DNA of 64,000 nt. Source: an uncultured Endomicrobiia bacterium. Its GTDB lineage: Bacteria; Elusimicrobiota; Endomicrobiia; DTEH01. The stretch covers positions 68,739-132,738 of the forward strand of contig CALDDQ010000006.1 in the NCBI GenBank assembly GCA_937936785.1, in the 5' to 3' direction. Below, piece by piece: positions 30,624 through 49,509 of the stretch. Within the stretch, counting starts at the first letter, position 1; each line of letters opens with the position of its first letter. The translations under genes were made by a program, and so were the position numbers. The notes below the pieces were generated by a model, which saw only the letters and a list, made by a program, of their open reading frames with translations, had not been told where the DNA came from and searched no databases.

Positions 30624-32576
30624 TTATTTTTTAATTTCTTTTTCCAAACGTTCTACTCCTTTTTTTGCACGATCATTTCCTGGATCAAGTTCGGATGATT
30701 TTTTCCACAACTCATACGCTTTTTTCAAATCACCAGAAGTGTAAGCTTTTAGCCCTTCCGTATAAAGTTTTGCTGATTCTTCTTTGTTTAAAACAATTTG
30801 TAGTTCATATTTTTGTTGTGCTTGAGATAATTTTGATGACACATCTTTATAATTTGGTATCAACTCTAACAATTTTTTGAAAAGTTCTACTGATTTTGAA
30901 TAATTTCCTCTATCAAAAAATGCTGTTGCTTCTTGATACATTTTTTCTGCTTGTTTTAATTTTTCTGTCTCTTTTTGTTTCGCTACCATCTCATTTTGTT
31001 TTTGTTTTGATAATGTTAAATATTCTTTTGCTTTTTCATGGTTGGGGTCTATCTCTAAAATATTTTCCATTCGTTGAATAGCTTTTGTATAATTACCTTT
31101 TTCATAAAAATTTATCCCTTCAGTAAAATAAACTGTTATACGTTGTTTAATTGCCTCTTTATGTATGTTATCAATTTTTTGCAAGTAAGATTTTGATTCT
31201 TTATGTTCAGGATTTAGTTTTATTATTATATCAAAGATTTCTCTAGCTTTTAAGATATCTCCTTTATCAAACAAATCTTTCGCTTGATTAAAACTTTCTT
31301 TTATTTCTTTATCAATCTTTTCTTTTAGTTTTTCTTGTTGCACTTGTTTAAACAATTCCTCAATTTTTTTAATTTCAGTTTTTGCTTCAGTATGAGTAGG
31401 ATCAAGTTCTGTTATGTATAACAACTCTCTATATGCATGCAGATATTTCCCTGAACTTATATACAACATAGATTTTTTATATGATTTATCAATTAAATAT
31501 GATACTACACTTATCTTAGATGATGTTACGTTACCAAATTTAATTGTAATATTTGCCTTGTGTGTTTCACCAAATACCACAAACGGTGCAAAAGAATAAT
31601 CAAACCGAAAATTATTAATTCCTATACCAAAACCTATCCTTGGACCTTGGTCAAGATATAACTCTGAAGCAAACTTATATCCTGCACGAATGGCTAATAT
31701 ATTCATTATAAAATATTCTGCCCCAAAACTTATAAAATTTGGATTTAAATTAAAATCTATTCCTGTAGTCAATGGATTCCCAACAATATCTTTTCGATAC
31801 GCAATACCAAATTTTGTATTCAATGGAAATTCTGACATTTCTGTATCAAACTGTAATCCACCAAAATAATTTTGTACAGAAACACCTGTTCTAATACTAC
31901 CATTAAAAAGTTTAGTTTTAGGTATAAATAATAAACCAAAATCTGAAGTTATACCTGACTTTGTTATTTCAGCTAATTTTTTGTTTACTAACTTTGCACT
32001 AATCCCTGCATATAGTCCAGGTTTAAAATCTGGCATATCAATTGTTTCTTTATACCTTGCTATTCTTTGAGAATAAACTAAACTAATTGCCATATCGTTT
32101 GCTATAACTGTCCCTTTAGAAACACCACTAGAATCGTAAGCTTTTATCTCTTCCATACTTAAATAATATATCCCTATCCCAATATTGAAATCATAACTTT
32201 TCTTTCCCTGCCTTTTAAATATAAATGGGAAATTGTATCCACTGGTAAAATAATTTATATTTTCTATATACCTGTTGTAGCCAAAAGATAATTCATACAA
32301 ATCCAGCTGTGCTAATCCTGCAGGATTATAATAAATACTTGTAACATCATCACTTATTGCACAAAATGTTTCTGCTAACCCTGTTGCACGGGCACCAATG
32401 CCTATTTTTAAAAAGTTTGCTGTAGTATTTGAAGAAAAACTTTCCTGAACAAAAAGGTAAAATTGTAGAACAAAAAAAATTTTTGTTATCATTATAAAAA
32501 ATATCTTTATGTAAACATTACTTTTCACTTTAACAACTTTTTTTACCATGAAATATTTTCTATAAACATTTTTCAT
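30624..32576 (-). CDS. PorV/PorQ-like (FadL-like) outer-membrane beta-barrel fused to C-terminal TPR repeats
   Basis: Signal peptide. 'GARATGLAETFCAISDDVTSIYYNPAGL' resembles the N-terminal signature of T9SS PorV/PorQ family barrels. About 350-aa beta-strand-rich region, then about 280 aa of TPR-like helical repeats (KAIQRMENILEIDPNHEKAKEYL and similar). Confidence 0.45.
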   Translation of the reverse strand: MKNVYRKYFMVKKVVKVKSNVYIKIFFIMITKIFFVLQFYLFVQESFSSNTTANFLKIGIGARATGLAETFCAISDDVTSIYYNPAGLAQLDLYELSFGYNRYIENINYFTSGYNFPFIFKRQGKKSYDFNIGIGIYYLSMEEIKAYDSSGVSKGTVIANDMAISLVYSQRIARYKETIDMPDFKPGLYAGISAKLVNKKLAEITKSGITSDFGLLFIPKTKLFNGSIRTGVSVQNYFGGLQFDTEMSEFPLNTKFGIAYRKDIVGNPLTTGIDFNLNPNFISFGAEYFIMNILAIRAGYKFASELYLDQGPRIGFGIGINNFRFDYSFAPFVVFGETHKANITIKFGNVTSSKISVVSYLIDKSYKKSMLYISSGKYLHAYRELLYITELDPTHTEAKTEIKKIEELFKQVQQEKLKEKIDKEIKESFNQAKDLFDKGDILKAREIFDIIIKLNPEHKESKSYLQKIDNIHKEAIKQRITVYFTEGINFYEKGNYTKAIQRMENILEIDPNHEKAKEYLTLSKQKQNEMVAKQKETEKLKQAEKMYQEATAFFDRGNYSKSVELFKKLLELIPNYKDVSSKLSQAQQKYELQIVLNKEESAKLYTEGLKAYTSGDLKKAYELWKKSSELDPGNDRAKKGVERLEKEIKK

Positions 32577-32717: not shown

Positions 32718-33089
32718 TTACTTTATTACAATAACTTTCCCTGCTTTACTTTCATTATCCTTCTTTATAATATAAATATAAACATCACTTGAAGGCAAAT
32801 ATTCGCTAAACTTCCACTCCGACTGAAAATCTTTTTTATTATTTCCTTCATAAATAGTTAAAACTTTTTCGCCATTTAATGTGTAGATATCAATAATTGC
32901 ATCTTTTGGTAAATCGGTAAATTTTATACTCTTGTCTTTGTTAAAATAACATGGTACCGGATACACCCAGGAACTTTCAATTCCTGTTTCACAAAATATG
33001 TTTTGTGTCCCAAAATTTATCAAGCATACAATTGTTATTAAAAAAACTGTTTTGGCTGAAACTTTTATTTTGCACATTTTTTTCTCCAT
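32718..33089 (-). CDS. small secreted protein consisting of a signal peptide plus a T9SS C-terminal sorting domain only
   Basis: 'WVYPVPCYF...AIIDIYTLNGEKV...DVYIYIIKKDNESKAGKVIVIK' parallels the giant protein CTD 'YAYPVPYRPN...AVIKIYTINGELI...DVYIYIIENKKNKKTGKLIVVR'. An 18-nt identical DNA stretch (tatataaatataaacatc) is shared. Confidence 0.6.
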   Translation of the reverse strand: MEKKMCKIKVSAKTVFLITIVCLINFGTQNIFCETGIESSWVYPVPCYFNKDKSIKFTDLPKDAIIDIYTLNGEKVLTIYEGNNKKDFQSEWKFSEYLPSSDVYIYIIKKDNESKAGKVIVIK

Positions 33090-33144: not shown

Positions 33145-36100
33145 TTATCTTACAACAATCAACTTACCTGTTTTTTTATTTTTTTTATTTTCTATTATAT
33201 AAATATAAACATCGCTACCTACATTAACATCTTCCCAAGAAGTTTTGTAATCTTCAATACCATCATCTTGAGGTTCTTTAATTGTTTTTATAAGTTCACC
33301 ATTGATGGTATAAATTTTTATAACTGCTTCTCGGGAAAGGTTTGTAAAAGTAATCTTTTTATGTGAGGAATCAGTATTTGGTCTATATGGCACAGGATAA
33401 GCATATGCATCATCTAACGAATAATCCTCTTCCCCGACAATCATATAAACTGAAAAATGTTGAACATAAACAGATACAGTATTTTCTTCTATATCAACTA
33501 CAGAATCTGGAATCCTTATCCAAACATTGTCTTCTTCGTCTAAATAGTAAATTTTTAATGTTTTTTCTTTAACTTTTTTAGACAGATTGTCTATATAACC
33601 ATCTTGATCATCATCTTTATATGGAATTGTAATCTTAATTTTATTTTTAAAATTTCTTTTTATGACATTTTTGTTTTCATCATATAAAACAAATTCTCGC
33701 ATAGTATTCACAAGAGATGTTTTATCTTCTACCTTTGTTATTTTATCATTTGCAATTTCAATTTTTTGTGGTTTAACATCTACTTGATTAGATTGTGGAT
33801 CTTTGCCTATTATTAAATAAGCATCTTGTGATAAAGTATTTGGATAAATCTCTACTACTGTTTTATCTTCTTCTAAAGCAAATTTGTTTTCCTTCTCATA
33901 ATCCATAATTGTAGTAAAAACAAAATCTATTTTTTGATCAATGGTATTACCAAAAATATCTTTCACACCAGAAGAAATTGTTACTTTATACTTATAATTT
34001 TTATTTAAAACTTCAACAGGAATAAGTTTTATTTCTAAGTTATCTAAAGAAAATACTCTATAATTTACCTCTTGATTAATTTGTTGATTTAAATTATTTT
34101 TTATCTCAAAAATCTTTACTGCATTGGAAATTGTCATTGTATCTATATAATCATCATAATATATTGTTGGAATTATAGTATTAGCAATCCCTGCATCATT
34201 ATTTTGTGGATAATGTGATATTACTGAAGCGACATATTTTGTAACAATTTGCACTGCATCAGAATATTCTGACCAATGACCAATATCATCTTTTGTCCTA
34301 ATCCAAAATTTATATGTTGTTTTTGGTAATAAATCAGATAATATTATACTTGCAGAAACTGACGGACTAAACGATGTTGTAAAATATATCATAAACTCTG
34401 CTGAATTAGCATTTGAAACCATAGATGAACTATATTTAATTTCTACTGCTCCATCAACTACACTCCCTACATATCCATCATCACCAGGATATGTCCAAGT
34501 AAGTTTTATCTGTCCAATTGATGTACCTTTAACTGCAGTTAAATCTTTAACTTTTCCAGGAGGAAAATTATCCTGAGCATAAGTAGATACTGTTGTTGCT
34601 TGAGATAATAAATAATTTAGGTTATAACTCGCTATTCGATAAAAATATGTGGTATCCAAAATCAGGTTTGTATCTATAAAACTTGTATCAATACAAGAAG
34701 ATGTTAATTGAACCCAATAATTTGTATCAGTAGACCGTTCAATTTTATATCCTGCAACACCGCCAATAGGATGTGCCCATTTAAGTTCTATTGCATTGCT
34801 TGACAATGTTTCTAAACTAACATTTTGTGGAGGTAATGAATGTGTTACTACAGTAACTATTTCACTATATTTTGTTTCAATATTATCTTCATTTCTGGCT
34901 TTTACTCTTACATAATATGCAGTATTAGGAATTAAACCAACAACATTTGTACCAACATCTCCTCCCCAAGAAGAATATGTTTGCCAAAACGGTATTAAAG
35001 ACAATGTTCCATCTGTTTGAACACTAACACTTGAACTAAAATTTGAATATGTGCTTACATAAATAATAAACTTTGTATTTTGCGGATTATCATTTGGAGA
35101 AATTTTTAAGTTAAAAGTAGTCGTTGAATATGTGGAAATTATTGGAATATCTGGATCATTAGCTAAAGTATATCTTGACATTGTTACACTACTGCTAAAA
35201 ACTCCATCACCATTAGTATAACGAACAGAATAAGTATATTTTTCATTTGGTGGTAAACCTGCAATCAAAGTTGCGTTGGCAGAGGTATCAACAGAATAAC
35301 CACCTGCTCCCTCTATGCAATCAAAATAATATCTACTTAACTCAGATCTATCATTTCTAAATTTTTCAACTGACATAAAAATTGCTCCTGCAACAAGTTC
35401 TGTATTCATAACAAAATTTTGTGGGACTCTGGTTTTTGTATACTTTCTTAATACTGTTGTATTATATTCGCTCCATATACCATTTACATTCTTATATTTT
35501 ATTCTATACTCATATGAAGTATTTTCCAATAATCCCGTATCTGTAATAACATAACTTCCTGTAGTTATATAAATTTTTCCTGTTGTTACACATTCTATCA
35601 TAACCCCAGCTTGCCCTAAAGTCGCATTATGTAAAGGTTCTGAAGTTCTTATTACTAGAAACGCTGATGATGAAATATCTATATCAACCCATAACTTGTT
35701 ATTTGTTGGATTTGAAATTAAAGTATAGGTGGTTATATCTAAAGTTTGAGAAACTTCTTCCCCAATCACATTTCTTGTTTTAATTATATACCTATAATGT
35801 GAATTTTCATTCAATCCAGTATCCGTATGTGCTGGATCAACAGACCATCCTCTACTATCAGAACCACCACCTTGCGACATTGACAGAAAACTTATCCCTG
35901 ACAAACCTAAATTTAAGTTGTTTAAAACATCTAACAATCTTAATGAAATACTGCTAGTTCCAACATAATCCCAAACTGCTTCCGTAGGATATTTCATTGC
36001 TGTATAAGAAACTATACTTGAAGTTGTTGTCTCTATTCCACCAAAATTTCGCGCTTTAACAAATAATTGATATGAAGTATTATGTAACAGTTCATTATTA

Positions 36101-39100
36101 GTTGACCAATAAGTTGTATTTATCCAGCCAGAAGTTTTTAATTTAGAATACGGTGTTGTCGTAGTCGTCCACACTTCAGCAAAAAATTCGTTTTCGCCAG
36201 AAGATGCTTCCCAACCCCAAATAATACTTTGTGGTGTTGCGGTAAGTTTACAAAGATTTTTTGGTGGAATAGAAGGTGTAATTTTCACACCTAAAAAAAT
36301 TGTTGTTGTTTCTACCAACGACTCATTTCGTGCTTTTACTCTGAAATAATAGGATGTATTTCCTGTTAAACCTAAAATTGTCCAAGTAGTTTTTGCAATC
36401 CAGCCACTATTGGCAAATATAGAACTAAAATTTTCTCCTGTTGTAGAACATTCAACATAATACTTTGTGATTAAAGAATTGTTGTTTGGCCACCATGAAA
36501 CTGTTATAGAATCAATGCTAATATCTAAAAACGGTTCTGTAGGTACAACTGGGACATTGGCAAATGTCCAAATAGTTGTAGTGTTGACAAAATCACTAAA
36601 TTCTCCCTCTGCATTTTTATACCTTATTCTATATTGATATGCAGAATTTGGTAAAAGATTATCATCAATAAATATTCTTTGTGTAGAAGAATTTCCTCCA
36701 CCAGAATCATATATACAAGTCCATTCATAACCAGAATTGCCTATAGTATCATTAGAAAAACTATCAACAGAAAGTTGTACTGATTGGGTAGATAAAACTA
36801 TCACACTAACATTTTTTGGTATATTACATAATGTATATTTATATTTTAATTCACTATATTCACACCATACACCATTAACATTTTTATATCTTGCTTTATA
36901 ATAATAACTCGTATTTTCTAAAAGTTGATTTTCTTGCCATGAATATTGTCCTGTTAAAATTGTAGAACTACCAGTATTTATATTAACAATTTCACATCCG
37001 GTTTGTCCTAAGGATTGGTTCGGTGGTGTAGATAAGTTTACAACTAAAAATGTGGAAGAAGATGCTATTATATTTATTTTTGATAATGTTGGAACTGCAA
37101 TTAGTGTATAGGTAGAAATTTCTGTTGTAAAATTTGTTTCCACATTATCAGCATTACGAGATTTTATTTTATATGAATATGAAGTATTTTCTGTTAAATC
37201 AGTGCAAAAAAATTCTAAACTTTTTTGCCAGAAAGATTCTTTTATTTCTCCACTGCCAGAAGTAACATAAAAATATACTCCTGATTGTCCTGAAGTTATG
37301 TTTGTTAAATTGTTTAATATACGAATACCGATACTACTTGATCCTACAAAATAAATTTCTGAGTCAGTAACAGGTTCTATTGCTGTATATGTTTTTGTAG
37401 ATACAACATTAGTTTCTATATCAAAAACATTTCTTGATTTAAGATTCAAGGTATATTCTGTATTTGGTAACAAATTGTATACTGTCCAACTTGTCATTTT
37501 TATCCAACCACTATTTGTTGATGGTTCTATTATATATGAATAAAATTCTTTCTCACTGCCACCAGATGTCCAATTCCAAGTTATTGTGTTTAATGTTATT
37601 GATGAGCTTAAAACTATTATTGGCACATTTGATAATGTAGCTGTTGTGCCTAAAATATAGTACGGTTCTGTCTCTGGAGTTGAAATGTTGTTATTATTTA
37701 TTGCACGAATTCTAAAATAATATGATGTGTTAGAAACAAGCCCATTAAAAATATAGTTCGTGTTTATGGTTAAAGAACTTGTTATTATAGAATTAAAATT
37801 AGAAGTAGAAGATGTTTCTATAAAATATTTTGTCCAAATTGGATTAAAATTGTTTGACCAACTGACTTTGATTGTGTGCGTTGAAAGTTCTGAAAATAAA
37901 TTTTCTACACTTACAGGAGAATTACACAAAGTAGATGTAGCGTTGAATAAGACAAAATCTGTTGTTACATTTTCATAATTAATTGCACTTATACGAAAAT
38001 AATATGTAGTATTTGGAAATAAATTAGTAAATATTGCTTTTAAATTTGTCGTTGTAGAAGAATTTAATATTGGTAGAAAGTTTATATTTGTTGATATTTG
38101 GACAAAATATTTTGTCCCTTGAGGGTTCTGAGGTAATGATGATGTCCAAACAGAGTGTATGGCAGAAGAAGTTATTGTTTCATATCCTTCAACAACAGGA
38201 TTTGAACACAAGGTAACTTTGGTCCCTAAATAAATTTCTTTTGTAGGAACATTTTTATGATTGATTGCTTTTACTTTGAAATAATATGTTGTATTCGGCA
38301 ACAGATTGTCAAATATAGCATATAAATTGTACGTTTGTGAAGAAGTTATAATATTTTCAAAATTATCTTGTGAAATTTCACACAAATATTTTGTTTTGTT
38401 TGGCGGATTACCGTTATTACTCCAATTTGCTTGTATTGACGAAATAAAAATGTTGCTAAAAGATGCTGTTGAAGGTTCTATACATAAAGTTACCGTTGTT
38501 CCTATAGCACCCCACAAACTTATGTTACCTTTAGTATCTTTAAACTTTTGTGAGAAATAATATGTTGTATTATACAAAAGTTCTGTTACATAAAAAGTAG
38601 GATTTTCACTACTAACCCATATCAGATCTATCCAGTTAATTCCATCAGTACTTTTTCTCACCTGCCATTGCCATAGACCTACTCCTATTTCTGTAACTGA
38701 AGATTGGAAAACATTAATTGAACTTATTAAAACTTCTGAAAAAGATGTTATTCCTATATTGTAAGGTGCAATTTTATCTATCACAAATTGTTCACTTAAA
38801 ACACTTAGTATAAAATTACCGTCTGTTAATGTTATACTTGTATGTACTGTATTGTAATAGTTACTGTCTAATTCTAATGTGTCAAATAAAAAAGTTATTT
38901 TGTTTTCTTGGTTGGAAATATTTGTTAATATTTGTTTATTTTCACTTTCACCAATCTGATATTCTAAACCATCAATGCTTAAAATACCATCTGAATCATA
39001 ATATGAAGCAGTGGCTGTGGATATTACACACTTGTTCCATACACTTAAATCTGTTGTTGTAGTATAACTTACCATTAACTTACATTTGTCTGAATTTTCA

Positions 39101-42100
39101 TCATTAATTTCAACTTGAACTGTTATTTTTCCACTACCGTCAGTTGTTTGAGTTGGTAAAGAAATATAATTTACTGTAGGGGCTACATTTGAAACAAAAG
39201 CAAGAAATGTTGTTGTACTGAAATTTGTATCAATATAGTTACCATATTCATCTTTCACTGTTGGAGGTGTGGTAGTAATTTTTATTGTATAGGTACTTTG
39301 TTGCAAATGTTCCTCTTGAGTATAAATCCTAAATGTGTTCCCGCTTATATAAGTAATACTCGTTATGGTTAAAATAATTTCAGGTGAACTACTCATATAA
39401 ACAGAATAATATGTTGTGTTAGTAGAAACATTTATATTCATCATTTTATCAAAAGAAAAGTTTGCACTGTTTGTACTAACTGCATTTGAAACAGATAAAA
39501 GTTTTGGCGAAGTACCACTATAGTTTATAACAAAAGTCGTAATATCAACAGAATAAACATTTCTATAATTTGCAGAACGAACTTTGAAATACCAAAATCC
39601 ATCACTATCTGCTTGTTTAATAATTTCTGTCCCATCCCAAAATGTTGTTGGAATTGCATTAATATCTGTTCCCCAATAATAGTAATAATGACTTGCAATC
39701 GCTTTAACACTAAAAGTTGCTATCCGACCTTCGTAACCACATTTTGCACTTGACGCTGTACTAGAAACAAAAATGCCTGAATAAAAAATTTTAGGTTCTG
39801 TTGGCAACGTGCACGTTGAACCAAAAAATGTTAGCTCACTTTCTATAAACTCTTCATTTTGTGACTTTCCTATAAAATAATACGTCGTATTAGCATCTAA
39901 TTTTGTAAATAAATAATTGTTGCTATTTGTCCAATTAGAAGTTTCACTAAATATAGTAAAATTTATGTCAGTAGAAACCGATACAAAATATTTTGTATAT
40001 AACGGATTTTGATTGTTAGACCAATTTAATATTATAGTGTAAGTAGAGATGTTTGTAAAACTGTTAAAAATGGGAATATTGGCTAAAGTAAATCTTGCCG
40101 TAGTTTCAGAAATTAAACTTTCTACTAAATCATTATATGCTACAACATATCTATAATAAGATGTGTTTGGAACAAGATTTTTTTCATTATAATATGTTGT
40201 ATTAAAACTTATATCTGCCAATATTCCACCAGTTGAACTTTTTAGTTTATACCCTATTTCTGCTAAAGAATTATCTTTCCATGCCCATTGAATTGAACCT
40301 GTGGTAATATTTACTGCTATAAATCCAGTTGGCGGATTAAATAATGTCTTGGTATAAATTGCTGTTGAAAGTTCTGATTCCAGCGGTGAACTAAAATATC
40401 CAAAACCTATGTCACCTAAATCTGTTGCTATAAGTTTGAAATAATACGTCACACCTGCAATAAGGTTTGTAACTACGGTATTACTACTCGGATGAAAAAC
40501 TGTTTTTGTTGAAACAAAATTGTCAGTCTTGGATTCAAAATTATATGTTGCATAATAAATGTTATATTTACTTCTATCATCAAAATATTCTGGTGGGTGA
40601 GGATTTGTCCATTCCAAAAATATATCTGTTTCACCAAGTGTAAACGCAGTAAGGTTTGTTGGGACAGATAATGGTAAATCTGCAGCAAATGTTGACACAG
40701 TATCTGACCATACGGACCAGTTTGGTCTTTCATCTGAAGCACGAATTTTAATATAAAAAGTTGTTCCTGGAAATAATCCTGTTAACGAAAAAGTTTGTTT
40801 CTCTGCTTGAATATATGAAGTAGTTAATATCACAAAATCAGATGGGATAAAATCTGTGCTTGTTGAATACTGTATCTGCCACCTTCCAAAAGAAACATTC
40901 CCTGTATAATTATTATCTCCTGGAGCAGTCCAGATAAGAATTATTTCGCTATCAACATTTCCTGTGTTTGCACTAAATCCGGTAATTTTTCCTGGCGGGA
41001 TATAATCATCTCGCGAGCACGTCGAAATTATAACACTAAATTCGGCCCAATTCGGAACTTCGTCTGCCATACGAACTTTTATGTAATATGAAGTATTATT
41101 AATCAATCCAGTTAAAACTATACTTTGAGAAGAATGTAGTATTGTATCCGTAGAACGAATTATCTTGTCGTATATAGAAAAACTACCATCAGTAGAAAAC
41201 TGTATTTCATATTTTCCTCCAACAATATTTCCATAATAATTATCATCACCAGGAGCAATCCAACTAAAAATTATTTCGCCTTCATTTGCTCCAGTTAATG
41301 CAGATAGATGATTTACTATACCTGGCGATTGGTTTGGACAAATCTGTTGCACTATTGACCAACTTGAAGTTCTAAGACCAGAATCAATTGTTTTCACCCA
41401 CCAATAATATGTTGTATTTTCTATTATATTTTTTAATATATGATTTTTCTCACTTCCAGTTCTTACAAAATTTCCCATTAATGGACTACCAAATGAACCA
41501 GAAACAATTATTGAATCTGTTGGCAATATACTTGTGGTAATATGTATGTTATAATATAACCCTGAAATTCCTGTTTCCGTATCAGAAAATCCACTAAATC
41601 TTAAATTTAGTTTTCCGCTATCAAACCATGACAAAAACAATGTTGGAACCGTTGGAGAAAAGTTAGAATTAGAAAATTCTGCTTCTAAAGATTTATAAAC
41701 ATAGTTTTTTTGGCCATAATTACCAAATACAATATCTAAATCTCCATCATTGTCTACATCACCCCATTCTGAAGTTCGTGTAGATTCTAATTTAACAGAT
41801 TCCCAAGATAAATTAAAATTGTTAAAAAAATTATTATATCTATATATTCTATTTTTACCATCGTTAGATATTAATTGATCCAAATATCCATCATTATCAT
41901 AATCTCCCCAAGAAACTTTATATGTGTTATCCACATCTAAAGATTCCCAAAAAAAATAAAAATCTGTTCCATTATTATTTTTGTATACCTGATTTTTTCC
42001 TAAATTGCCAACTAAAATGTCTAAATAACCGTCATTATCGTAGTCTCCCCACGCTACACTACTTGGGTCTGTACTAATTCCAATTAAAGATTTTTCTTGA

Positions 42101-45100
42101 CTAAAAGTTCTATCACCATTATTCTTATAAACTGATACAATACCAATATTGTTAGAACTTATTCCTACAATTACAAAATCTAAATAACTATCATTGTTAT
42201 AATCTCCCCATGATACTCCTTTTGTATAGTATGAGATCGGATTAAAACTATTCTCTAATTCAAATGTTCCATTACCTTTATTGCGATATATTCTATTTTG
42301 TTGTGTGGAAAGACCAGATCTACCAACTAAAATGTCTATAAAACCATCATTATCATAATCTCCCAAACTTATACTTGTAGGAGTACCTATATCTACTGAC
42401 CAAATATTTATAAAATTTTCGTTTCCATTGTTACTATAGACTCTAAGATACCCTACATTTCCTTCTATAAAATCAAGGTTACCATCGTTGTTAATATCGC
42501 CCCACGAAACACATCTTGTATTTTCAGCTAATGTAGAAACCCAAACTAGTTCAAAGTTGTTATTTCCATTATTGCGATAAATTTTATTTTTTTCTCCAAA
42601 ACCATCTAATGTACCAAAATTTCCTTCTAAAATATCTAAATATCCATCATTGTTGTAATCACCAAGAACTATCTGTGACGTGTTTTCTGCGCCAGTAGAA
42701 CTCCAAACTTCAAAAAAACTTCCAGGAATAACACTACACGTTGTGCTACTTGACCAATTATCCACCTCATCTGCAACACGTATACTAAAATTATGAACAA
42801 CTCGTGGTTGTAATCCTGTCAAAATCAAAACTTGTTCTTGTCCTTGGGATGCAGAAAATGTTTGTGTTGAAAAATACCATTGAACCCAATTTGTAGTATA
42901 ACTAATTTCATACTTACCACCTACTATATCTCCAAAATAATTATTATCTCCCGGTGTTATCCAGGTCAACTTCACTTGTTCATCAGTTACTCCAACAAAA
43001 CTTGTTACAATACCAGGTGCTACAATATCTCTCTGTGCCCAAGTAGTTGCTGTATTAGAAATTTCTGACCACAATGGTACTTCATCCGCAAACCAAATTT
43101 TAATATAATAAGTTACTCCTATGGTTAGTCCAGAAATTGTATGATTAACAACTGACCCCGGAGGTGGTGCAATGTTAAATTTTTCAACATACTGTGCTGA
43201 GATAGTGGACCAATTTATCCCAACCCAAGTTGATACTTGTATTCTACCTTCTCCTTTGTCAAACTGTTTTCTATATCCGTTATCTCCAGGAAAACTCCAA
43301 CTCAACTTTATTTCTCCTTCAAAATTCCCTGGTTCTCCCATAAGGTCTGTAACCATACCAGGTGGTACTGTATCTATTGTAATAGCATAACCTAAATTTG
43401 ACATCTCAGACAAATTGTTTCTTTCATCAAAAGATTTTATTGCAAAATAATATGTCGTATCGCCAGACAAATCTTTTGCAAAACGAAATTCCTGACTTCC
43501 TGCAGATTTTGGTAAATCATCTGGAATAGTACTCAATGTTGATGCAGAATCAAATGGTATGATCTTAACTTGAGTTGTGTTATATTCACCAAGAATAGGT
43601 TCCGGTACAACTTTTTTTCTTACAAAAATATTGTCCACATACCATCCTTCATAAGTATTACTACTTTCATCTACTGTATCAAATGTAAATTTAAGTTTTA
43701 ATGTTCCTGAAAAACCTGATATACCAACCGTTTTCTTAGACCACAAATCTGCTCTATCAGTTTTACTCCATAAAAGAACCCAACCATATCCACTACTTAT
43801 ATATACAGCCATATTATCTTTGTCATCATCTGTGTTATTCCAACTCTGAAAATTTAATTCTAAGTCACAATTTTCATTAAAAACAAAGTTTGGTGTTTCA
43901 GCAGAACCATTATTTGCAGATGGATAAGAATCATAAGTGTCGTAAGATATGCCATTTTTATTCATACTATATTTCAAATGTGGTGTTGGAATATTATTCT
44001 CCCATCGTTGATAATTTTGATGAAATGATATCGTACTAAATCTTTGCTCAAATGTCCATCCTGTATCAAATGTTTCATCTCCAAATACAAATGTATTTTT
44101 TATGTTACTGGTAAACCATGCATTATAATTTCCAAAGTACATATAAATATAATTTTCGCCAGGATAAATTTTTGGAATCTTTACCCAAATGTTTGCTTGT
44201 AAATAATTTGTTTTATTTTCAATCCAGTAACTTAACTCTTTTCTTTCTACTGAATCATCTGTGAACCTCAAATCACTAAAATCATACTTCATTGTTGGTT
44301 CATACCATACTGTAAAATTTAAAGAATAATCTTCAATAGTAGTACTTGAATTTATTTTATACCTTCTTTCCCATTGCCAACTACCACCACCAGAATTTGA
44401 TAAATTTACAATAGCAACTGTAGCACATTTTATTATATAACTTGATACTGTTCCTTCATAATTGTCATCACCTGGAGATATCCAACTTAAATTTATAATC
44501 CCGGCAGTATCACTTGAAGTTGCAACTAAAGTTGTAATTTTACCTGGTAAAACTTCAGTTGCAGATCGCCATTGATAGTTAGAAATTCCACTCATATTAT
44601 TCCTTTCATCAACAACACGAATTGCAAAATTGTTCCATCCTTTAGGGACATTATTAAGAACCAATTCTTCGCTTGTTCCTGCTTGTTGTGGTGCAGGTAT
44701 TGTTGCATTAATTGGAGGCAAAGTAACACTATAAGCACTGTTCCATGATAATTCGTTATCAATTGAATTTATAGAAGAATACCGTATTAAATAACTTGAT
44801 GCTGTCCCTGTTGAATAATCATCTCCGACAGCAATCCAAGTTAATTTTATCTGTCCTTCAACAGAAGTTGAACTTACAACAAGTGTTGTTATTATTGAAG
44901 GAGGAATTTCTATTGGAGAAACACTTATTGTAGTACTTGAAATTGGGGACATGTTCCCATAATCGTCAATAGCACGAATCGCAAAATACCAGATACCTTT
45001 TGGAACATTGTTTATAATAACTTCTTGAGTTGTTCCTGCAACTAATGGAACTGGCGGATTTGTCAATGTTGGTGCTGTGGTTATATCTGTTGCTTTTGAC

Positions 45101-46209
45101 CATAAAGATTCTGTATGTATACCAAAAGATGCATATTTTATGGTATATAAAGTTGCTGTTCCAACATATAAATCATCGCCCGTAGCAACCCATTTTAGTT
45201 TTATTTCACCTTCATTTGAAGTAACCTTTATTGTCAAACCTGTAATTTTACCTGGAGAAATATTGTCCACTTGTGCCCATTGTGTAGTACCGTTAGAAAT
45301 TAAACTATAATTTTGTTCTTCATCGACACTCCATAAACGAAAATAATATGTCACCCCTCTATTTAATCCAGTAATTGTGTAATTAACTGTTGTTCCAGGA
45401 GTTACACCATAAGTTGAAATTGTTACTTGTGCATTCGCAGTTGACCAATATACAATATTAAATGTTGAATATTGAATCTTATAACTTGAACCTTCTTCTA
45501 AAGGATTGGTTATTCCATTATCTTCACCCGGAACTGACCAAATAAGTTTTATTTTACCTTCTGTTTCACCTACAACAGATCTTAAATCTGACACTTTTCC
45601 TGGAGGAACAGCATCCTTGACCTTTATACCCGGTGAATTTGAAATTTTTGACATATTGGAAGTTTCTTTATTAATAGCTCTTATCGCAAAAAATAATACT
45701 TTTTTTGGCAAACCAGAAACAATCCATTGTTCTTGACTACCATATGGTTTTGGTACTGGAACCGAAGAAATAGTTATTGAATTATTCCAAATTTGATCGT
45801 TTGTAATTTGTTCTGTGGAATATTTTATAATATATCTTTCAGCACTACCATCTGTTCCATCATTTCCTGGTGCAGTCCAAAAAAGTTTTATTTCACCATC
45901 GTTGTCACCAGTTTCTCCTGATAAATCTGTTATTTTAGAAGGTGTCGGCGCATAAAATCTAAACAAAATATCGGAACTTGTATGAACTTGCCAAAAACTA
46001 CCGGAATTTGTTGATATAACCATTACACCATTCGTTCCCCAAAAAGATTTTAAATTATACGGTGTGGTGGGAGTGGCTGCAGTAACAGAACTTTGATAAC
46101 AGTTTAATAAATCTCCTCCATTAGACCTAAAAAATATTCTATAAGTTTTGTCTGTATAAAGTGTTGCAGGAGTAATTGTTTTTTCTATCCATGAAAATGT
46201 TGTCGGCAC
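33145..46209 (-). CDS. giant T9SS cargo/adhesin-like protein body (FN3 repeats, DUF2341-like beta-sandwich, 7-blade FG-GAP propeller, C-terminal sorting domain); continues upstream past an in-frame TAA
   Basis: 4354-aa ORF. The N-terminus lacks a signal peptide and the frame is open back to 46395. Many about 90-aa FN3-like units ending in TxYYF[RK]-type motifs. A 'DFSDLRFTDD' beta-sandwich lies at about 44255-44290. A T9SS CTD lies at about 33145-33390. Confidence 0.8.
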   Translation of the reverse strand: MPTTFSWIEKTITPATLYTDKTYRIFFRSNGGDLLNCYQSSVTAATPTTPYNLKSFWGTNGVMVISTNSGSFWQVHTSSDILFRFYAPTPSKITDLSGETGDNDGEIKLFWTAPGNDGTDGSAERYIIKYSTEQITNDQIWNNSITISSVPVPKPYGSQEQWIVSGLPKKVLFFAIRAINKETSNMSKISNSPGIKVKDAVPPGKVSDLRSVVGETEGKIKLIWSVPGEDNGITNPLEEGSSYKIQYSTFNIVYWSTANAQVTISTYGVTPGTTVNYTITGLNRGVTYYFRLWSVDEEQNYSLISNGTTQWAQVDNISPGKITGLTIKVTSNEGEIKLKWVATGDDLYVGTATLYTIKYASFGIHTESLWSKATDITTAPTLTNPPVPLVAGTTQEVIINNVPKGIWYFAIRAIDDYGNMSPISSTTISVSPIEIPPSIITTLVVSSTSVEGQIKLTWIAVGDDYSTGTASSYLIRYSSINSIDNELSWNSAYSVTLPPINATIPAPQQAGTSEELVLNNVPKGWNNFAIRVVDERNNMSGISNYQWRSATEVLPGKITTLVATSSDTAGIINLSWISPGDDNYEGTVSSYIIKCATVAIVNLSNSGGGSWQWERRYKINSSTTIEDYSLNFTVWYEPTMKYDFSDLRFTDDSVERKELSYWIENKTNYLQANIWVKIPKIYPGENYIYMYFGNYNAWFTSNIKNTFVFGDETFDTGWTFEQRFSTISFHQNYQRWENNIPTPHLKYSMNKNGISYDTYDSYPSANNGSAETPNFVFNENCDLELNFQSWNNTDDDKDNMAVYISSGYGWVLLWSKTDRADLWSKKTVGISGFSGTLKLKFTFDTVDESSNTYEGWYVDNIFVRKKVVPEPILGEYNTTQVKIIPFDSASTLSTIPDDLPKSAGSQEFRFAKDLSGDTTYYFAIKSFDERNNLSEMSNLGYAITIDTVPPGMVTDLMGEPGNFEGEIKLSWSFPGDNGYRKQFDKGEGRIQVSTWVGINWSTISAQYVEKFNIAPPPGSVVNHTISGLTIGVTYYIKIWFADEVPLWSEISNTATTWAQRDIVAPGIVTSFVGVTDEQVKLTWITPGDNNYFGDIVGGKYEISYTTNWVQWYFSTQTFSASQGQEQVLILTGLQPRVVHNFSIRVADEVDNWSSSTTCSVIPGSFFEVWSSTGAENTSQIVLGDYNNDGYLDILEGNFGTLDGFGEKNKIYRNNGNNNFELVWVSTLAENTRCVSWGDINNDGNLDFIEGNVGYLRVYSNNGNENFINIWSVDIGTPTSISLGDYDNDGFIDILVGRSGLSTQQNRIYRNKGNGTFELENSFNPISYYTKGVSWGDYNNDSYLDFVIVGISSNNIGIVSVYKNNGDRTFSQEKSLIGISTDPSSVAWGDYDNDGYLDILVGNLGKNQVYKNNNGTDFYFFWESLDVDNTYKVSWGDYDNDGYLDQLISNDGKNRIYRYNNFFNNFNLSWESVKLESTRTSEWGDVDNDGDLDIVFGNYGQKNYVYKSLEAEFSNSNFSPTVPTLFLSWFDSGKLNLRFSGFSDTETGISGLYYNIHITTSILPTDSIIVSGSFGSPLMGNFVRTGSEKNHILKNIIENTTYYWWVKTIDSGLRTSSWSIVQQICPNQSPGIVNHLSALTGANEGEIIFSWIAPGDDNYYGNIVGGKYEIQFSTDGSFSIYDKIIRSTDTILHSSQSIVLTGLINNTSYYIKVRMADEVPNWAEFSVIISTCSRDDYIPPGKITGFSANTGNVDSEIILIWTAPGDNNYTGNVSFGRWQIQYSTSTDFIPSDFVILTTSYIQAEKQTFSLTGLFPGTTFYIKIRASDERPNWSVWSDTVSTFAADLPLSVPTNLTAFTLGETDIFLEWTNPHPPEYFDDRSKYNIYYATYNFESKTDNFVSTKTVFHPSSNTVVTNLIAGVTYYFKLIATDLGDIGFGYFSSPLESELSTAIYTKTLFNPPTGFIAVNITTGSIQWAWKDNSLAEIGYKLKSSTGGILADISFNTTYYNEKNLVPNTSYYRYVVAYNDLVESLISETTARFTLANIPIFNSFTNISTYTIILNWSNNQNPLYTKYFVSVSTDINFTIFSETSNWTNSNNYLFTKLDANTTYYFIGKSQNEEFIESELTFFGSTCTLPTEPKIFYSGIFVSSTASSAKCGYEGRIATFSVKAIASHYYYYWGTDINAIPTTFWDGTEIIKQADSDGFWYFKVRSANYRNVYSVDITTFVINYSGTSPKLLSVSNAVSTNSANFSFDKMMNINVSTNTTYYSVYMSSSPEIILTITSITYISGNTFRIYTQEEHLQQSTYTIKITTTPPTVKDEYGNYIDTNFSTTTFLAFVSNVAPTVNYISLPTQTTDGSGKITVQVEINDENSDKCKLMVSYTTTTDLSVWNKCVISTATASYYDSDGILSIDGLEYQIGESENKQILTNISNQENKITFLFDTLELDSNYYNTVHTSITLTDGNFILSVLSEQFVIDKIAPYNIGITSFSEVLISSINVFQSSVTEIGVGLWQWQVRKSTDGINWIDLIWVSSENPTFYVTELLYNTTYYFSQKFKDTKGNISLWGAIGTTVTLCIEPSTASFSNIFISSIQANWSNNGNPPNKTKYLCEISQDNFENIITSSQTYNLYAIFDNLLPNTTYYFKVKAINHKNVPTKEIYLGTKVTLCSNPVVEGYETITSSAIHSVWTSSLPQNPQGTKYFVQISTNINFLPILNSSTTTNLKAIFTNLFPNTTYYFRISAINYENVTTDFVLFNATSTLCNSPVSVENLFSELSTHTIKVSWSNNFNPIWTKYFIETSSTSNFNSIITSSLTINTNYIFNGLVSNTSYYFRIRAINNNNISTPETEPYYILGTTATLSNVPIIVLSSSITLNTITWNWTSGGSEKEFYSYIIEPSTNSGWIKMTSWTVYNLLPNTEYTLNLKSRNVFDIETNVVSTKTYTAIEPVTDSEIYFVGSSSIGIRILNNLTNITSGQSGVYFYVTSGSGEIKESFWQKSLEFFCTDLTENTSYSYKIKSRNADNVETNFTTEISTYTLIAVPTLSKINIIASSSTFLVVNLSTPPNQSLGQTGCEIVNINTGSSTILTGQYSWQENQLLENTSYYYKARYKNVNGVWCEYSELKYKYTLCNIPKNVSVIVLSTQSVQLSVDSFSNDTIGNSGYEWTCIYDSGGGNSSTQRIFIDDNLLPNSAYQYRIRYKNAEGEFSDFVNTTTIWTFANVPVVPTEPFLDISIDSITVSWWPNNNSLITKYYVECSTTGENFSSIFANSGWIAKTTWTILGLTGNTSYYFRVKARNESLVETTTIFLGVKITPSIPPKNLCKLTATPQSIIWGWEASSGENEFFAEVWTTTTTPYSKLKTSGWINTTYWSTNNELLHNTSYQLFVKARNFGGIETTTSSIVSYTAMKYPTEAVWDYVGTSSISLRLLDVLNNLNLGLSGISFLSMSQGGGSDSRGWSVDPAHTDTGLNENSHYRYIIKTRNVIGEEVSQTLDITTYTLISNPTNNKLWVDIDISSSAFLVIRTSEPLHNATLGQAGVMIECVTTGKIYITTGSYVITDTGLLENTSYEYRIKYKNVNGIWSEYNTTVLRKYTKTRVPQNFVMNTELVAGAIFMSVEKFRNDRSELSRYYFDCIEGAGGYSVDTSANATLIAGLPPNEKYTYSVRYTNGDGVFSSSVTMSRYTLANDPDIPIISTYSTTTFNLKISPNDNPQNTKFIIYVSTYSNFSSSVSVQTDGTLSLIPFWQTYSSWGGDVGTNVVGLIPNTAYYVRVKARNEDNIETKYSEIVTVVTHSLPPQNVSLETLSSNAIELKWAHPIGGVAGYKIERSTDTNYWVQLTSSCIDTSFIDTNLILDTTYFYRIASYNLNYLLSQATTVSTYAQDNFPPGKVKDLTAVKGTSIGQIKLTWTYPGDDGYVGSVVDGAVEIKYSSSMVSNANSAEFMIYFTTSFSPSVSASIILSDLLPKTTYKFWIRTKDDIGHWSEYSDAVQIVTKYVASVISHYPQNNDAGIANTIIPTIYYDDYIDTMTISNAVKIFEIKNNLNQQINQEVNYRVFSLDNLEIKLIPVEVLNKNYKYKVTISSGVKDIFGNTIDQKIDFVFTTIMDYEKENKFALEEDKTVVEIYPNTLSQDAYLIIGKDPQSNQVDVKPQKIEIANDKITKVEDKTSLVNTMREFVLYDENKNVIKRNFKNKIKITIPYKDDDQDGYIDNLSKKVKEKTLKIYYLDEEDNVWIRIPDSVVDIEENTVSVYVQHFSVYMIVGEEDYSLDDAYAYPVPYRPNTDSSHKKITFTNLSREAVIKIYTINGELIKTIKEPQDDGIEDYKTSWEDVNVGSDVYIYIIENKKNKKTGKLIVVR
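41700..42700 (-). repeat. seven tandem FG-GAP/VCBS-type repeats (WGDYDNDGYLDILVGN...) forming a predicted 7-blade beta-propeller inside the giant gene
   Basis: Seven copies of the G-D-[YVI]-[DN]-N-D-G-x-L-D motif at about 40-aa spacing. Matching DNA motifs TC[AG]TAATCTCCCCA recur on the plus strand. Confidence 0.7.
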
Positions 46210-46395
46210 ACTAGTAGAATTCGCTAATACACCTGAACTTACTATTGTACCACTACCTCCACCAGTTATATCTCTTAACTCATAATCTATTGAATTAGTA
46301 GGATTACCAACTTTTCTTACATAAAACCCAACTTTTGTAATTGTTGTTGTAAAATTAAATACAAATTGTTCTCCAATTGATACTCCTGCACCAAC

Positions 46396-47055
46396 TTACC
46401 ACTTACGAATATTCTCTACCTGTATTCTTACAATAGAATTCCCATGGTAAAATCCATCACTATATTTTATTAAAAAAATCGGCATATAATTTTTAACATT
46501 CCAACTATTAGAAGACCATTCTATATAATTTAAATTGTTGTCCTCAATTTGATTTTCTGGAATTAAATTTACTCTAGGTAAAGTGTATACTGTAGTAATA
46601 TAATTGCTATCCATACCATTATAATCTATAACTATATGATAAACTTTGTCTTTAACTAATGTTGTGCTTGAAATATTAATCGTTGCCCATGAGTTTGGGG
46701 AAAAAGAATTATAAAATGTGTAAGACAACCATATATTATTTGGTTTTCCATTACCATCATCTCCCATTATACCTATCTTATAATTTGGACTACCAATTAC
46801 ATTTGCAACAGGATACATAATTAGATCAATAACACCATCTTTTGGTGCTGTAAAACTAAATGATAAATATTTTAAATTTAATGAATTTATAGGAGGACTG
46901 ACTGGTTTAATTCCAGCTATACTTTGATTACCCACATACTCGCCAGCAAAAAGATTTGATAAGTTGAAAAGAATAAAAGAAAAAACAAATATTAAAAAAT
47001 AAATGTTAAAAATTTTATCATCCATCTTTTGATTAATAAAATTTTTGTTTATCAC
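46396..47055 (-). CDS. N-terminal signal-peptide-bearing segment of the giant adhesin gene (separated from the body by a single TAA at 46396-46398)
   Basis: 219 aa. 'IFNIYFLIFVFSFILFNLSNLFAG' signal peptide. Same reading frame as the 33145-46209 ORF. The 62 intervening codons have no stop and look protein-like (…DITGGGSGTIVSSGV…). Confidence 0.7.
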   Translation of the reverse strand: MINKNFINQKMDDKIFNIYFLIFVFSFILFNLSNLFAGEYVGNQSIAGIKPVSPPINSLNLKYLSFSFTAPKDGVIDLIMYPVANVIGSPNYKIGIMGDDGNGKPNNIWLSYTFYNSFSPNSWATINISSTTLVKDKVYHIVIDYNGMDSNYITTVYTLPRVNLIPENQIEDNNLNYIEWSSNSWNVKNYMPIFLIKYSDGFYHGNSIVRIQVENIRKW

Positions 47056-47119
47056 CTTTTTAATTTTATAATTATTTTAATAATTTTAATAAAAAATATT
47101 TACTTAAAGAACCTATTTC

Positions 47120-47128
47120 ATTATACCA
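47120..47128 (-). promoter_or_regulatory. extended -10 promoter (TGgTATAAT) upstream of the giant adhesin gene
   Basis: Minus-strand reading is 'atgaatatggTATAATgaaatagg', about 65 nt upstream of the 47055 start. It is preceded by tandem A/T-rich 'ttacaactttttta' repeats (UP-like). Confidence 0.4.
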
Positions 47129-47227
47129 TATTCATATCACAAAACTGTAAAAAAGTTGTAAAAAAGTTGTAAATTTTTGTTTATGTGCTTTAAGAATTTG
47201 GTAGGATTTATAAAAATTTTAAAATTT

Positions 47228-48277
47228 TTAATATGATTTCAAAATTTTTATAAGTTCTTCTGTGGAATTGTCAAACCTTACTTTTTTTATAGGCTTACCT
47301 TTGGCAAATAAAAGACCTACACCTTTACCAAAAGCTATTCCTAAATCAGCATTTTTTGCCTCACCAGGTCCGTTAACTTCACAACCCATAATTGCTACCT
47401 TTATAGGTTTTTCAAAAAATTTTATATTTAATGAAGGTAGTTCTTTTTCAAAAGAAGATACTATTTTTTGTAAATTTATCTTACACCTACCACATGTTGG
47501 ACATGAGATTAGTTCTATTCCATAGTTACGCAAATTTAGTGATTTTAAAATTTCATACCCAACTATTACTTCATCTATAGGATCACTTGTTAAAGAAACT
47601 CTTATTGTATCTCCGATACCGTTATATAACAGTACTCCTAATCCTATGGCAGATTTTATACTACCTACTAACTTTGTCCCGGATTCTGTAATTCCTAGAT
47701 GCAATGGATAATTGTATTTTTTTGCAATTTGATGATAAAGTTTTATTGTAGAAACCACATCAGACGCTTTGGCTGAAATTATTATATCACCGAAATTATT
47801 TTTTTCAAACATTTCTATATAACTTTCTAATGTTTTCATCATTGTAGTTTCAAGGTTCATTTTATCTTTTTTTATTGAACCTGAGTTTAAACCAAGCCGA
47901 ATTGGAACTTTATTTTTTTTTGCTTCGTTGATTATTAATTTTACTCGTTCTTCAGAACCAATATTGCCAGGATTTATCCTAATCTTATCCGCACCACTTT
48001 TTATAGATTCAATTGCTAATCGGTAGTCAAAATGTATATCTGCAACTAATGGTATTTTTATGTTTTTTTTAATTTGTCTTATAGCATACGCAGAATCTAA
48101 GTCTGGTACCGCTACACGTATAAGTTCACACCCTGCTTCTTCTAACTGTTTTATTTGTTTTACTGTCTGTTTAACATCAGTAGTTTGCGTTTTTGTCATT
48201 GACTGAACAACAATAGGGTTTCCACCACCAATTTTTATCCCACCTACAGTTATAACCTTCGTCCTACCTCTATACAT
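47228..48277 (-). CDS. ispG: 4-hydroxy-3-methylbut-2-en-1-yl diphosphate synthase (IspG/GcpE)
   Basis: 'ELIRVAVPD', the TIM-barrel domain, and the C-terminal 4Fe-4S motif 'CPTCGRC...GC'. The start is taken at the internal Met (MYRGRTKVITVGG), because the longer ORF runs into the IS200 hairpin. Confidence 0.85.
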   Translation of the reverse strand: MYRGRTKVITVGGIKIGGGNPIVVQSMTKTQTTDVKQTVKQIKQLEEAGCELIRVAVPDLDSAYAIRQIKKNIKIPLVADIHFDYRLAIESIKSGADKIRINPGNIGSEERVKLIINEAKKNKVPIRLGLNSGSIKKDKMNLETTMMKTLESYIEMFEKNNFGDIIISAKASDVVSTIKLYHQIAKKYNYPLHLGITESGTKLVGSIKSAIGLGVLLYNGIGDTIRVSLTSDPIDEVIVGYEILKSLNLRNYGIELISCPTCGRCKINLQKIVSSFEKELPSLNIKFFEKPIKVAIMGCEVNGPGEAKNADLGIAFGKGVGLLFAKGKPIKKVRFDNSTEELIKILKSY

Positions 48278-48288
48278 AGTTTCGTAGT

Positions 48289-48304
48289 GCACCCTTAAGG
48301 GTGC
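48289..48304. repeat. perfect 16-bp palindrome (left-end hairpin of the IS200-like element; REP-like)
   Basis: GCACCCTT|AAGGGTGC, immediately upstream of the ispG start. Confidence 0.7.
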
Positions 48305-48311
48305 TTTACAA

Positions 48312-48797
48312 TTATAACACAAATTTGTCTATTGGAATTTGCATCTTTTCTCTTGTTTCACCAAAATATTGTCTATAACTTGAAAATTCGTAATCTTTAA
48401 CATCTATAACCAATTTTTGTCTAACAGGATTGTTGTGAATATAATTTATTCTATTAATCAACTCTTTTTTATCTTTCAACACAGTCTCATAATACCTTCT
48501 CTGCCATACATGATCTGTTTTTTTATAAATTTGATTATATTTTCGTGCAAAATTACCCTTAATAAAATTCATTATCTTTGATAACGAATATTTTTCTGAT
48601 GGAGCAATAATTATATGAAAATGTTCTGGCATTATTACATAACCAAAAAGTTTAAATTCTAATATGAACCTATGATATGATATTGTTGCCAAAAGAAATC
48701 TTGCATTTATTGGTTCTAAAAATATTTTTCTTCTTAAATACGTAACTGATGTAACAAAATAAACGCCTTCTTTTTGAAAAAAATGTTTTAGTTTCAT
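48312..48797 (-). CDS. tnpA: IS200-like / REP-associated tyrosine transposase (HUH Y1 transposase)
   Basis: 161 aa. HUH motif 'MPEHFHIIIAP' and catalytic Tyr region 'NYIHNNPV'. Confidence 0.8.
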   Translation of the reverse strand: MKLKHFFQKEGVYFVTSVTYLRRKIFLEPINARFLLATISYHRFILEFKLFGYVIMPEHFHIIIAPSEKYSLSKIMNFIKGNFARKYNQIYKKTDHVWQRRYYETVLKDKKELINRINYIHNNPVRQKLVIDVKDYEFSSYRQYFGETREKMQIPIDKFVL

Positions 48798-48810
48798 TCA
48801 AGTAATATTG

Positions 48811-48836
48811 GTAGAGCACCATTAATGGTGCTCTAC
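48811..48836. repeat. perfect 26-bp palindrome (right-end hairpin of the IS200-like element; REP-like)
   Basis: GTAGAGCACCATT|AATGGTGCTCTAC. It shares the GTAG.GCACC core with the left hairpin. Confidence 0.7.
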
Positions 48837-48844
48837 ATAAAAAA

Positions 48845-49459
48845 TCAATTTTTATTCAAAATAATTTCTATCAATTTTTCTACAGGTTCTTTTAAATGAT
48901 CATATCCGTTTTGTTCATTTTTTATTACAACAATTTCATACTCTTTAAGTTGCACTAATTTATCCTTGTCATCGTATAAATAAGTTTTTTCCATTTCTTC
49001 TCTTGAAACCAGATGGTCATCAGTTCCTGCTGCAATTGCGTTTTTGTGCCGTTCAACATTACGTTCCCAACATATTTCAAATGAACAATCAATATAAACT
49101 ATTACAGAATTTTTTAAAATTTGTTGTGAAAAATTTTTCAGTGCATTGACATAATTTGAACGTGAAAATTCTACAAATATCACCTCATCACTTTTAAACT
49201 TTAACAAATCTTTGTTAACTTGTTTTAAAATATCATCCCAAATAGTATCATCTGTAACTTTATACCCTCCATCGGGCGTTTTTTTACATCGTTTCCATTC
49301 ACCAGTTTTTTCATCATTTTGAAATATTGCCCACAATTTTGGGAAATCATCCACTCGCGGATATTCTTTGCCAACATTTTTTTGTTTTAATTTATCTATC
49401 ACCATTCTATAAATTGCTGATTTGCCACAACCTGGCCTTCCTAATAAAAATATGTACAT
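48845..49459 (-). CDS. P-loop NTPase, small kinase-like (AAA_33/zeta-toxin/nucleoside kinase-like) hypothetical protein
   Basis: 'LLGRPGCGKSAIY' Walker A at residues 5-17. 204 aa. No further recognisable motifs. Confidence 0.5.
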   Translation of the reverse strand: MYIFLLGRPGCGKSAIYRMVIDKLKQKNVGKEYPRVDDFPKLWAIFQNDEKTGEWKRCKKTPDGGYKVTDDTIWDDILKQVNKDLLKFKSDEVIFVEFSRSNYVNALKNFSQQILKNSVIVYIDCSFEICWERNVERHKNAIAAGTDDHLVSREEMEKTYLYDDKDKLVQLKEYEIVVIKNEQNGYDHLKEPVEKLIEIILNKN

Positions 49460-49509
49460 AAAACTTTTCTCCTTTATAATATTATTTTAATTATTGAAAA
49501 ACCTGGCAC

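Follow-up and report, generated by a model that had tools for sequence, protein, structure and literature searches.

A premature in-frame TAA probably interrupts a single giant surface-protein gene in an uncultured Endomicrobiia bacterium

The locus and its reading frame

The window analysed here is a 64,000-nucleotide (nt) stretch of contig CALDDQ010000006.1 (assembly GCA_937936785.1, positions 68,739 to 132,738 of the forward strand) from an uncultured Endomicrobiia bacterium. Its minus strand carries two consecutive open reading frames (ORFs), of which the upstream one, 219 amino acids (aa) long, encodes a signal peptide and the downstream one, 4,354 aa long, encodes the body of a giant surface protein. 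The two are separated within their reading frame by a single stop codon, a TAA at positions 46396-46398 (Table 1). Homology across this stop indicates that they are the two halves of one gene, and the interruption is best explained by a genuine and probably recent nonsense mutation.

The starts of the two ORFs lie 846 nt apart (282 × 3), and because this distance is a multiple of three both belong to one frame. An offset between them is thereby ruled out, and the initial annotation, which had placed both ORFs in a single frame with only the TAA between them, holds on both points, since re-translation of positions 45700-47130 shows no stop other than the TAA (46398-46396 in the direction of reading) separating the signal-peptide ORF from the body. 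The codons surrounding it read cgt aag tgg TAA gtt ggt gca gga, which places a G directly after the stop and flanks it with the residues VENIRKW upstream and VGAGVSIGEQFVF downstream. The 62 codons that follow, up to the GTG at 46209 from which the body is called, are free of stops and also contain no in-frame ATG, GTG or TTG (46395-46210). An open run of this length exceeds chance expectation, with a probability of at most 0.004 whether it is calculated from the base composition of the gene or from the stop density of its own off-frames. The genetic code is the standard bacterial one: the 51 ORF terminators in the window comprise 33 TAA, 10 TGA and 8 TAG codons, and an alternative code is ruled out because all three stop codons terminate ORFs, with TAA the commonest.

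The TAA is present in two assemblies. In public collections the 209-aa product that a gene caller assigns to the upstream ORF (P0001) forms a two-member cluster, with one member from a 136-kb NCBI/ENA contig and the other from a contig of the Logan assembly of run ERR9287890; a literature search for this run yielded no paper. The Logan contig aligns to positions 36399-52913 of the window (16.5 kb) with 99.96% identity and carries the identical TAA, and because it differs by three single-nucleotide polymorphisms (SNPs) and one 3-nt indel it does not represent the same consensus. The indel, which falls within the 62-codon stretch, reflects the copy number of an in-frame ACA (Thr) in the ACA run at 46340 (positions 6574-6576 of Logan contig L001), yielding NFTTTITK in one case and NFTTTTITK in the other. 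All three SNPs are nonsynonymous, namely Ala/Val in ispG (48135), Tyr/Phe in the upstream ORF (46448) and Ser/Arg in the body (37606), and are too few for a test of selection.

Since a second, non-identical assembly contains the same TAA, it is unlikely that the stop arose as an error of sequencing, consensus building or assembly, with a sense codon at 46396-46398 in reality and an intact gene. Base substitutions are the rarest kind of assembly or consensus error, and an in-frame stop at this position requires precisely such a frame-preserving substitution, rather than a homopolymer indel, in a local sequence that forms no low-complexity run. Such an error would be easier to accept in an organism known only from metagenome-type assemblies, and the locus itself is known from two contigs only, the same two that alone carry a neighbouring 204-aa protein.

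Homology across the stop and the head module

The relationship between the two ORFs is revealed by their homologues. Representative proteins, 1.84 billion in number, were searched exhaustively with HMMER, the query being the 373-aa junction region with an X at the stop. This recovered 279 relatives at E ≤ 1e-3, of which 158 also reach E ≤ 1e-10. On local re-alignment, 144 of the 149 homologues retrieved match without a break across query positions 190-230, within which the stop lies. Furthermore, a profile constructed from 27 homologues, with the window's own sequence left out, matches the upstream ORF over profile positions 2-177 (E = 2e-43) and resumes after the TAA over profile positions 185-331 (E = 2.5e-39), the second match beginning eight positions after the end of the first. 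The two halves thus abut at the TAA, which, together with the continuity seen in the homologues, argues for single-gene ancestry, and establishes at the level of sequence homology that the upstream ORF and the body are halves of one gene. Both the one-gene proposal of the initial annotation and its description of the 62 codons as stop-free and protein-like are borne out by these alignments.

Within the alignment, the stop occupies a poorly conserved linker of variable length, situated between the motifs DG.Y.GNPY and [IV]YG...GE.F, which appear in the window as DGFYHGNSI on the upstream side and VGAGVSIGEQF on the downstream side. None of the 149 homologues ends or begins at this linker. A recurrent split within the family was considered and rejected, as the homologues that end early do so within the second of the two domains described below or beyond the linker, in the manner expected of fragments at contig ends. 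Many homologues, which are 1,249-3,407 aa long, begin with a signal peptide that leads directly into Y.GNQ and the same module, and the window's N-terminus aligns with the signal peptide and the Y.GNQ start. In homologue P0023, a signal peptide and the module are followed by fn3 domains and a CHU_C signal of the type IX secretion system (T9SS) on one polypeptide.

The module that spans the stop, here termed the head, is predicted to consist of two β-sandwiches. An AlphaFold2 model of the merged module, based on a 28-sequence alignment, has a mean predicted local distance difference test (pLDDT) score of 91.5 and a predicted template modelling (pTM) score of 0.86, and in the trimmed sequence the first sandwich spans residues 1-174 and the second 189-332. 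Residue 183, to which the stop corresponds, lies in the linking coil beside the stretch of lowest confidence. In the model, the stop position is therefore seen to be the loop between the two sandwiches, such that the upstream ORF would comprise the signal peptide and a complete first β-sandwich. This revises the site of the split as first described: the stop does precede the body, but the boundary does not run between a signal-peptide segment and the body, since both the alignment and the model place the TAA inside a two-domain head.

The Pfam family DUF4082 is matched by 17 of the 28 aligned family members (best E = 1.5e-11), whereas the window's own head sequence has no Pfam match even at E ≤ 10 and does not reach the DUF4082 gathering score. 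Foldseek comparison of the model with the PDB returned only generic tandem jelly-roll, lectin and carbohydrate-binding module (CBM) folds, and a profile search of PDB sequences with the head module yielded nothing significant. Some homologues (P0121 and P0146) contain the second type of sandwich without the first. We also observe that five family members (P0032, P0033, P0072, P0107 and P0145) are stand-alone modules of approximately 340-356 aa, with M[VSA]YNPA at the start and no signal peptide, which suggests from their sequences that the tandem-sandwich module also exists as an independent protein, perhaps non-secreted or phage-borne.

Export and translation of the body

The N-terminus of the upstream ORF reads as a Sec signal peptide of approximately aa 1-27 (MDDKIFNIYFLIFVFSFILFNLSNLFA, followed by GEYVGNQ). 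The good signal peptide that had been noted on this ORF is thus of the Sec type, and it aligns with the signal peptides of the homologues. By contrast, the body polypeptide has no signal peptide, as had also been stated, and its GTG start at 46209 falls in the middle of a β-sandwich domain; the signal peptide resides on the 209-aa ORF and would be present in the reconstructed ancestral gene. The body contains at least nine copies of fn3, FG-GAP repeats, DUF2341, a Pur_ac_phosph_N-like domain and Big_5. Its last ~90 residues reach 21.3 bits with TIGR04183 (Por_Secre_tail), the model for T9SS sorting domains, which is below the cutoff of 23, and share 40% identity (E = 6e-18) with the C-terminal domain of the 123-aa protein encoded immediately downstream. 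The gene that follows encodes a PorV/PorQ-family outer-membrane domain. On this sequence evidence, the intact protein would be exported in two steps, crossing the inner membrane by the Sec pathway and then following a T9SS-like route. Because of the T9SS-like C-terminal domain and the PorV/PorQ-family neighbour, export of the body would require the signal peptide from which it has been severed, and the earlier reasoning that the body could not be exported alone appears strengthened accordingly by its sequence context.

Could the body still be translated on its own? The GTG at 46209 lacks a Shine-Dalgarno motif, a motif present in ~45% of the window's genes, nearly all of which start with ATG. 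A consensus scan of positions 45900-47400 detected no promoter signal above chance and no terminator-like site. Upstream of the signal-peptide ORF, an extended -10 element (TGgTATAAT, 47128-47120) can be read by eye, preceded at 47145-47175 by three direct repeats arranged as TTTACAAC-TTTTT-TACAAC-TTTTT-TACAG (TTTACAAC/TTTACAG type); judged by sequence, the repeats and the extended -10 may constitute a promoter or operator of the giant gene.

These features bear on the idea of a stable two-gene arrangement, in which a secreted 209-aa single-sandwich protein would be made alongside a body that is initiated separately, at GTG 46209 or at a non-canonical start. The upstream ORF does end cleanly past a complete folded domain, and the homologues that possess the second sandwich without the first provide a precedent for separating the two. 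Initiation at GTG 46209 would, however, remove ~60 residues from the second sandwich, at a codon with neither a ribosome-binding site nor a promoter signal above chance, and would produce a body devoid of a signal peptide yet equipped with an export-type C-terminal domain. In addition, the 62 supposedly non-coding codons retain motifs conserved in the family, and the arrangement occurs in none of the 149 homologues. We consider two stable genes highly improbable.

Alternatively, the stop could be real and still be passed occasionally, with UAA readthrough, by near-cognate decoding or by a suppressor tRNA encoded elsewhere, supplying a low level of full-length protein and thereby throttling the 13.9-kb gene. 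The 4,416 intact codons downstream are compatible with readthrough, as is the location of the stop in a variable surface loop that would accommodate whichever residue was inserted, but both features are equally expected of a very young mutation. The G at the +4 position is unusual in that the natural TAA terminators of the window mostly precede A or T. Against readthrough, UAA is the least leaky terminator in bacteria and TAA is the main terminator in the window; RNA folding after the stop is no better than that of shuffled sequences (z = -0.72), giving no sign of a stimulatory structure, and the window encodes no suppressor tRNA, its sole tRNA being tRNA-Met. A split at this site is found in 0 of 149 homologues, and no other gene in the window is split in frame. 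The collections searched contain no orthologues in which the stop would be seen to be conserved across species. Taken together, readthrough appears unlikely. A ribosomal hop from the TGG before the stop to the next TGG, 8 nt downstream, was also considered and rejected, as it leads out of frame to a stop within ~11 codons. Other pairs of same-frame neighbours in the window were likewise rejected as splits, being unrelated genes (LepA/RadA-like, chorismate synthase/HEAT and PTS IID/HPr).

A stronger form of this idea, namely that the UAA is kept on purpose and that rare readthrough or suppression at a tolerant loop acts as a translational throttle for a 4,626-aa T9SS-type protein, we regard as a long shot. 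If it were true, a few ribosomes would make the giant protein while the others release a small secreted lectin-like domain, and regulated readthrough of UAA would then have a bacterial example in a giant gene. Of the readings considered, readthrough, unlikely as it is, is the only one that would be of wider interest.

The features of the locus and its neighbours are collected in Table 1. The 123-aa ORF downstream of the giant gene could be a relic of a further cargo gene or the result of a duplication of the C-terminal domain, or it could encode a small cargo or decoy protein. The PorV/PorQ-family gene is followed by genes for a histidine kinase and two response-regulator proteins (24613-30517). 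The core T9SS components PorK, PorL, PorM, PorN and Sov were not seen within the 64-kb window. On the other side of the giant gene, a REP-associated tyrosine transposase (RAYT; 121 bits, 48312-48797, minus strand) lies just upstream of ispG and overlaps the start of its longest ORF; a search of 46900-49600 for REP-like palindromes or repeats was negative. A 703-aa ORF (9718-11829, minus strand) has no NCBIfam match at E ≤ 1e-5.

At the scale of the whole window, nearly all gene-like ORFs of at least 100 aa are on the minus strand and the G+C content is 24-33%. The GC skew is negative in 30 of 32 two-kb windows and near zero in the other two, which cover 36000-40000 in the middle of the giant gene, compared with -0.15 to -0.36 elsewhere. 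The pattern is consistent with a long co-oriented stretch, probably of the leading strand, and the rise in skew within the giant gene is probably a composition effect of its repeated fn3/FG-GAP region.

Table 1. Coordinates of the interrupted gene and adjacent features in the window
Feature	Coordinates	Strand	Description
Upstream ORF	46396..47055	-	219 aa from GTG 47055 (mechanical start), stop included
Upstream ORF, gene-caller version	46399..47025	-	209 aa from ATG 47025; signal peptide and first β-sandwich
N-terminal head module	45949..46944	-	~330 aa; two DUF4082-like, lectin/CBM-like β-sandwiches with the TAA between them
Premature in-frame TAA	46396..46398	-	Variable loop between the two β-sandwiches; present in both assemblies
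Open stretch from TAA to called GTG	46210..46395	-	62 sense codons; start of second β-sandwich, including the conserved GEQF motif
Called body ORF	33145..46209	-	4,354 aa from GTG 46209; stop at 33145-33147
T9SS-like C-terminal sorting domain of the giant protein	33148..33417	-	TIGR04183 21.3 bits; likeness to the neighbour's domain
Promoter-like region upstream of the signal-peptide ORF	47120..47175	-	Extended -10 TGgTATAAT at 47128-47120, read by eye
Downstream 123-aa ORF	32718..33089	-	Nearly all T9SS type A sorting domain; TIGR04183 27.3 bits, cutoff of 23 passed
PorV/PorQ-family outer-membrane domain with C-terminal TPR repeats	30624..32576	-	650 aa; NF033709 PorV_fam 128.7 bits, cutoff 90

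A recent nonsense allele and its relation to known systems

We propose that the locus is a single giant surface-protein gene with a genuine premature TAA, most likely a null allele of recent origin or a young pseudogene, and assign this reading a probability of roughly three in four. The initial annotation had listed a very recent pseudogene, an error and readthrough as the options; this set is supported, with a recent nonsense allele or pseudogene ranked first. The intact protein would have comprised approximately 4,626 aa, with a Sec signal peptide and the two-domain DUF4082-like head joined to the T9SS-like C-terminal sorting domain by an extended stalk of fn3, FG-GAP, DUF2341 and Big_5 domains. 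A sense codon in the loop that connects the head domains would then have mutated to TAA. Ribosomes initiating at ATG 47025, the only good start, would release the 209-aa product, consisting of the signal peptide and the first sandwich. From the remaining 13.2 kb, the body would be made poorly or not at all, because the first 62 codons offer no in-frame start and the GTG that follows them lacks a ribosome-binding site. Devoid of a signal peptide, the body would also not pass across the inner membrane. Long untranslated messages are subject to Rho-dependent polarity, to which this transcript would additionally be exposed; a rho gene is present in the window (52604-53908). The mutation would be young, since the 4,416 codons downstream of the TAA are fully open at a gene G+C content of 29% and still match the family profiles. 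Both the loss of function and the recency of the mutation are what we infer from these features.

Several points weigh against this interpretation. The 13.2 kb that remain intact downstream fit equally well with continued selection on the body, that is, with some expression. The TAA is established at the level of the assembly consensus, and the two assemblies, being 99.96% identical, may derive from the same study or reads, so that the TAA may not be fixed in the population. Moreover, no close orthologue that would reveal the ancestral codon or date the stop was found in the collections searched. In the exhaustive HMMER search, the best non-self matches show 31-33% identity among the first dozen and at most 39% further down, over short stretches. 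A word-indexed protein search returned only the 209-aa ORF, its sensitivity being limited, as the body was also missed despite a query overlap of 100 aa. Scanning the junction peptide against GTDB species genomes and JGI metagenomes gave no match, and exact-sequence look-ups of P0001, Rho and the body protein gave no record. The matches of ispG, at only 54-59% identity, were to metagenome-assembled genomes of three different phyla (Acetivibrionales, Omnitrophota and Endomicrobia). The comparison of orthologous codons suggested at the outset met with no close orthologue; of the distant homologues, 144 of 149 are continuous across the site.

For annotation, the 209-aa and 4,354-aa genes should be combined into a single entry marked as interrupted, instead of being counted as a small hypothetical protein and a giant one that lacks a signal peptide. 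Fixation of the stop in the population would mean that the organism has silenced its largest surface protein in the recent past; as a matter of speculation, such a loss can stem from phage pressure or from growth in an enrichment or in association with a host. Beyond the interruption, the analysis delineates a conserved tandem DUF4082-like head of ~330 aa that caps many very large secreted proteins and for which Pfam coverage is partial.

As a recently inactivated gene, the locus most likely represents an ordinary phenomenon. Pseudogenes formed by nonsense mutation of large surface or adhesin genes are a well-known class in bacterial genomes, and the present case shares with them one early in-frame stop in a very long and otherwise intact ORF, an export signal severed from the body and flanks that are recognisably coding. 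It is distinct in that no intact orthologue or allele was found for comparison, so that its status as a pseudogene rests on homology at the level of the family and not on an orthologue.

The encoded protein resembles the giant T9SS cargo adhesins of the Bacteroidota/FCB group, for example proteins of the SprB type, which carry CHU_C or type A C-terminal sorting domains. Shared features are a multi-kilobase gene, long arrays of fn3/Ig-like domains and FG-GAP repeats, a TIGR04183-related sorting domain of ~80-90 aa at the C-terminus and an adjoining PorV/PorQ-family gene, and homologue P0023 unites the head, fn3 and CHU_C. In contrast to these adhesins, the C-terminal domain falls just under the curated cutoff, the gene is interrupted, and the polypeptide that bears the C-terminal domain has no signal peptide.

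The head itself is similar, but not identical, to Pfam DUF4082 (PF13313). Members of its family match DUF4082, and the predicted fold is the tandem jelly-roll or lectin-like sandwich; the window sequence remains unmatched, and the unit delineated here is a fixed pair of sandwiches, ~330 aa in length and N-terminal in location.

Finally, the arrangement of an in-frame stop ahead of a long open extension coding for real domains is reminiscent of programmed readthrough, as in the A1 protein of phage Q-beta, where the stop is UGA. To our knowledge, the bacterial and phage cases of readthrough depend on UGA or UAG as leaky stops and show conservation between relatives, whereas the stop described here is a UAA, is followed by nothing stimulatory and is conserved in no homologue.

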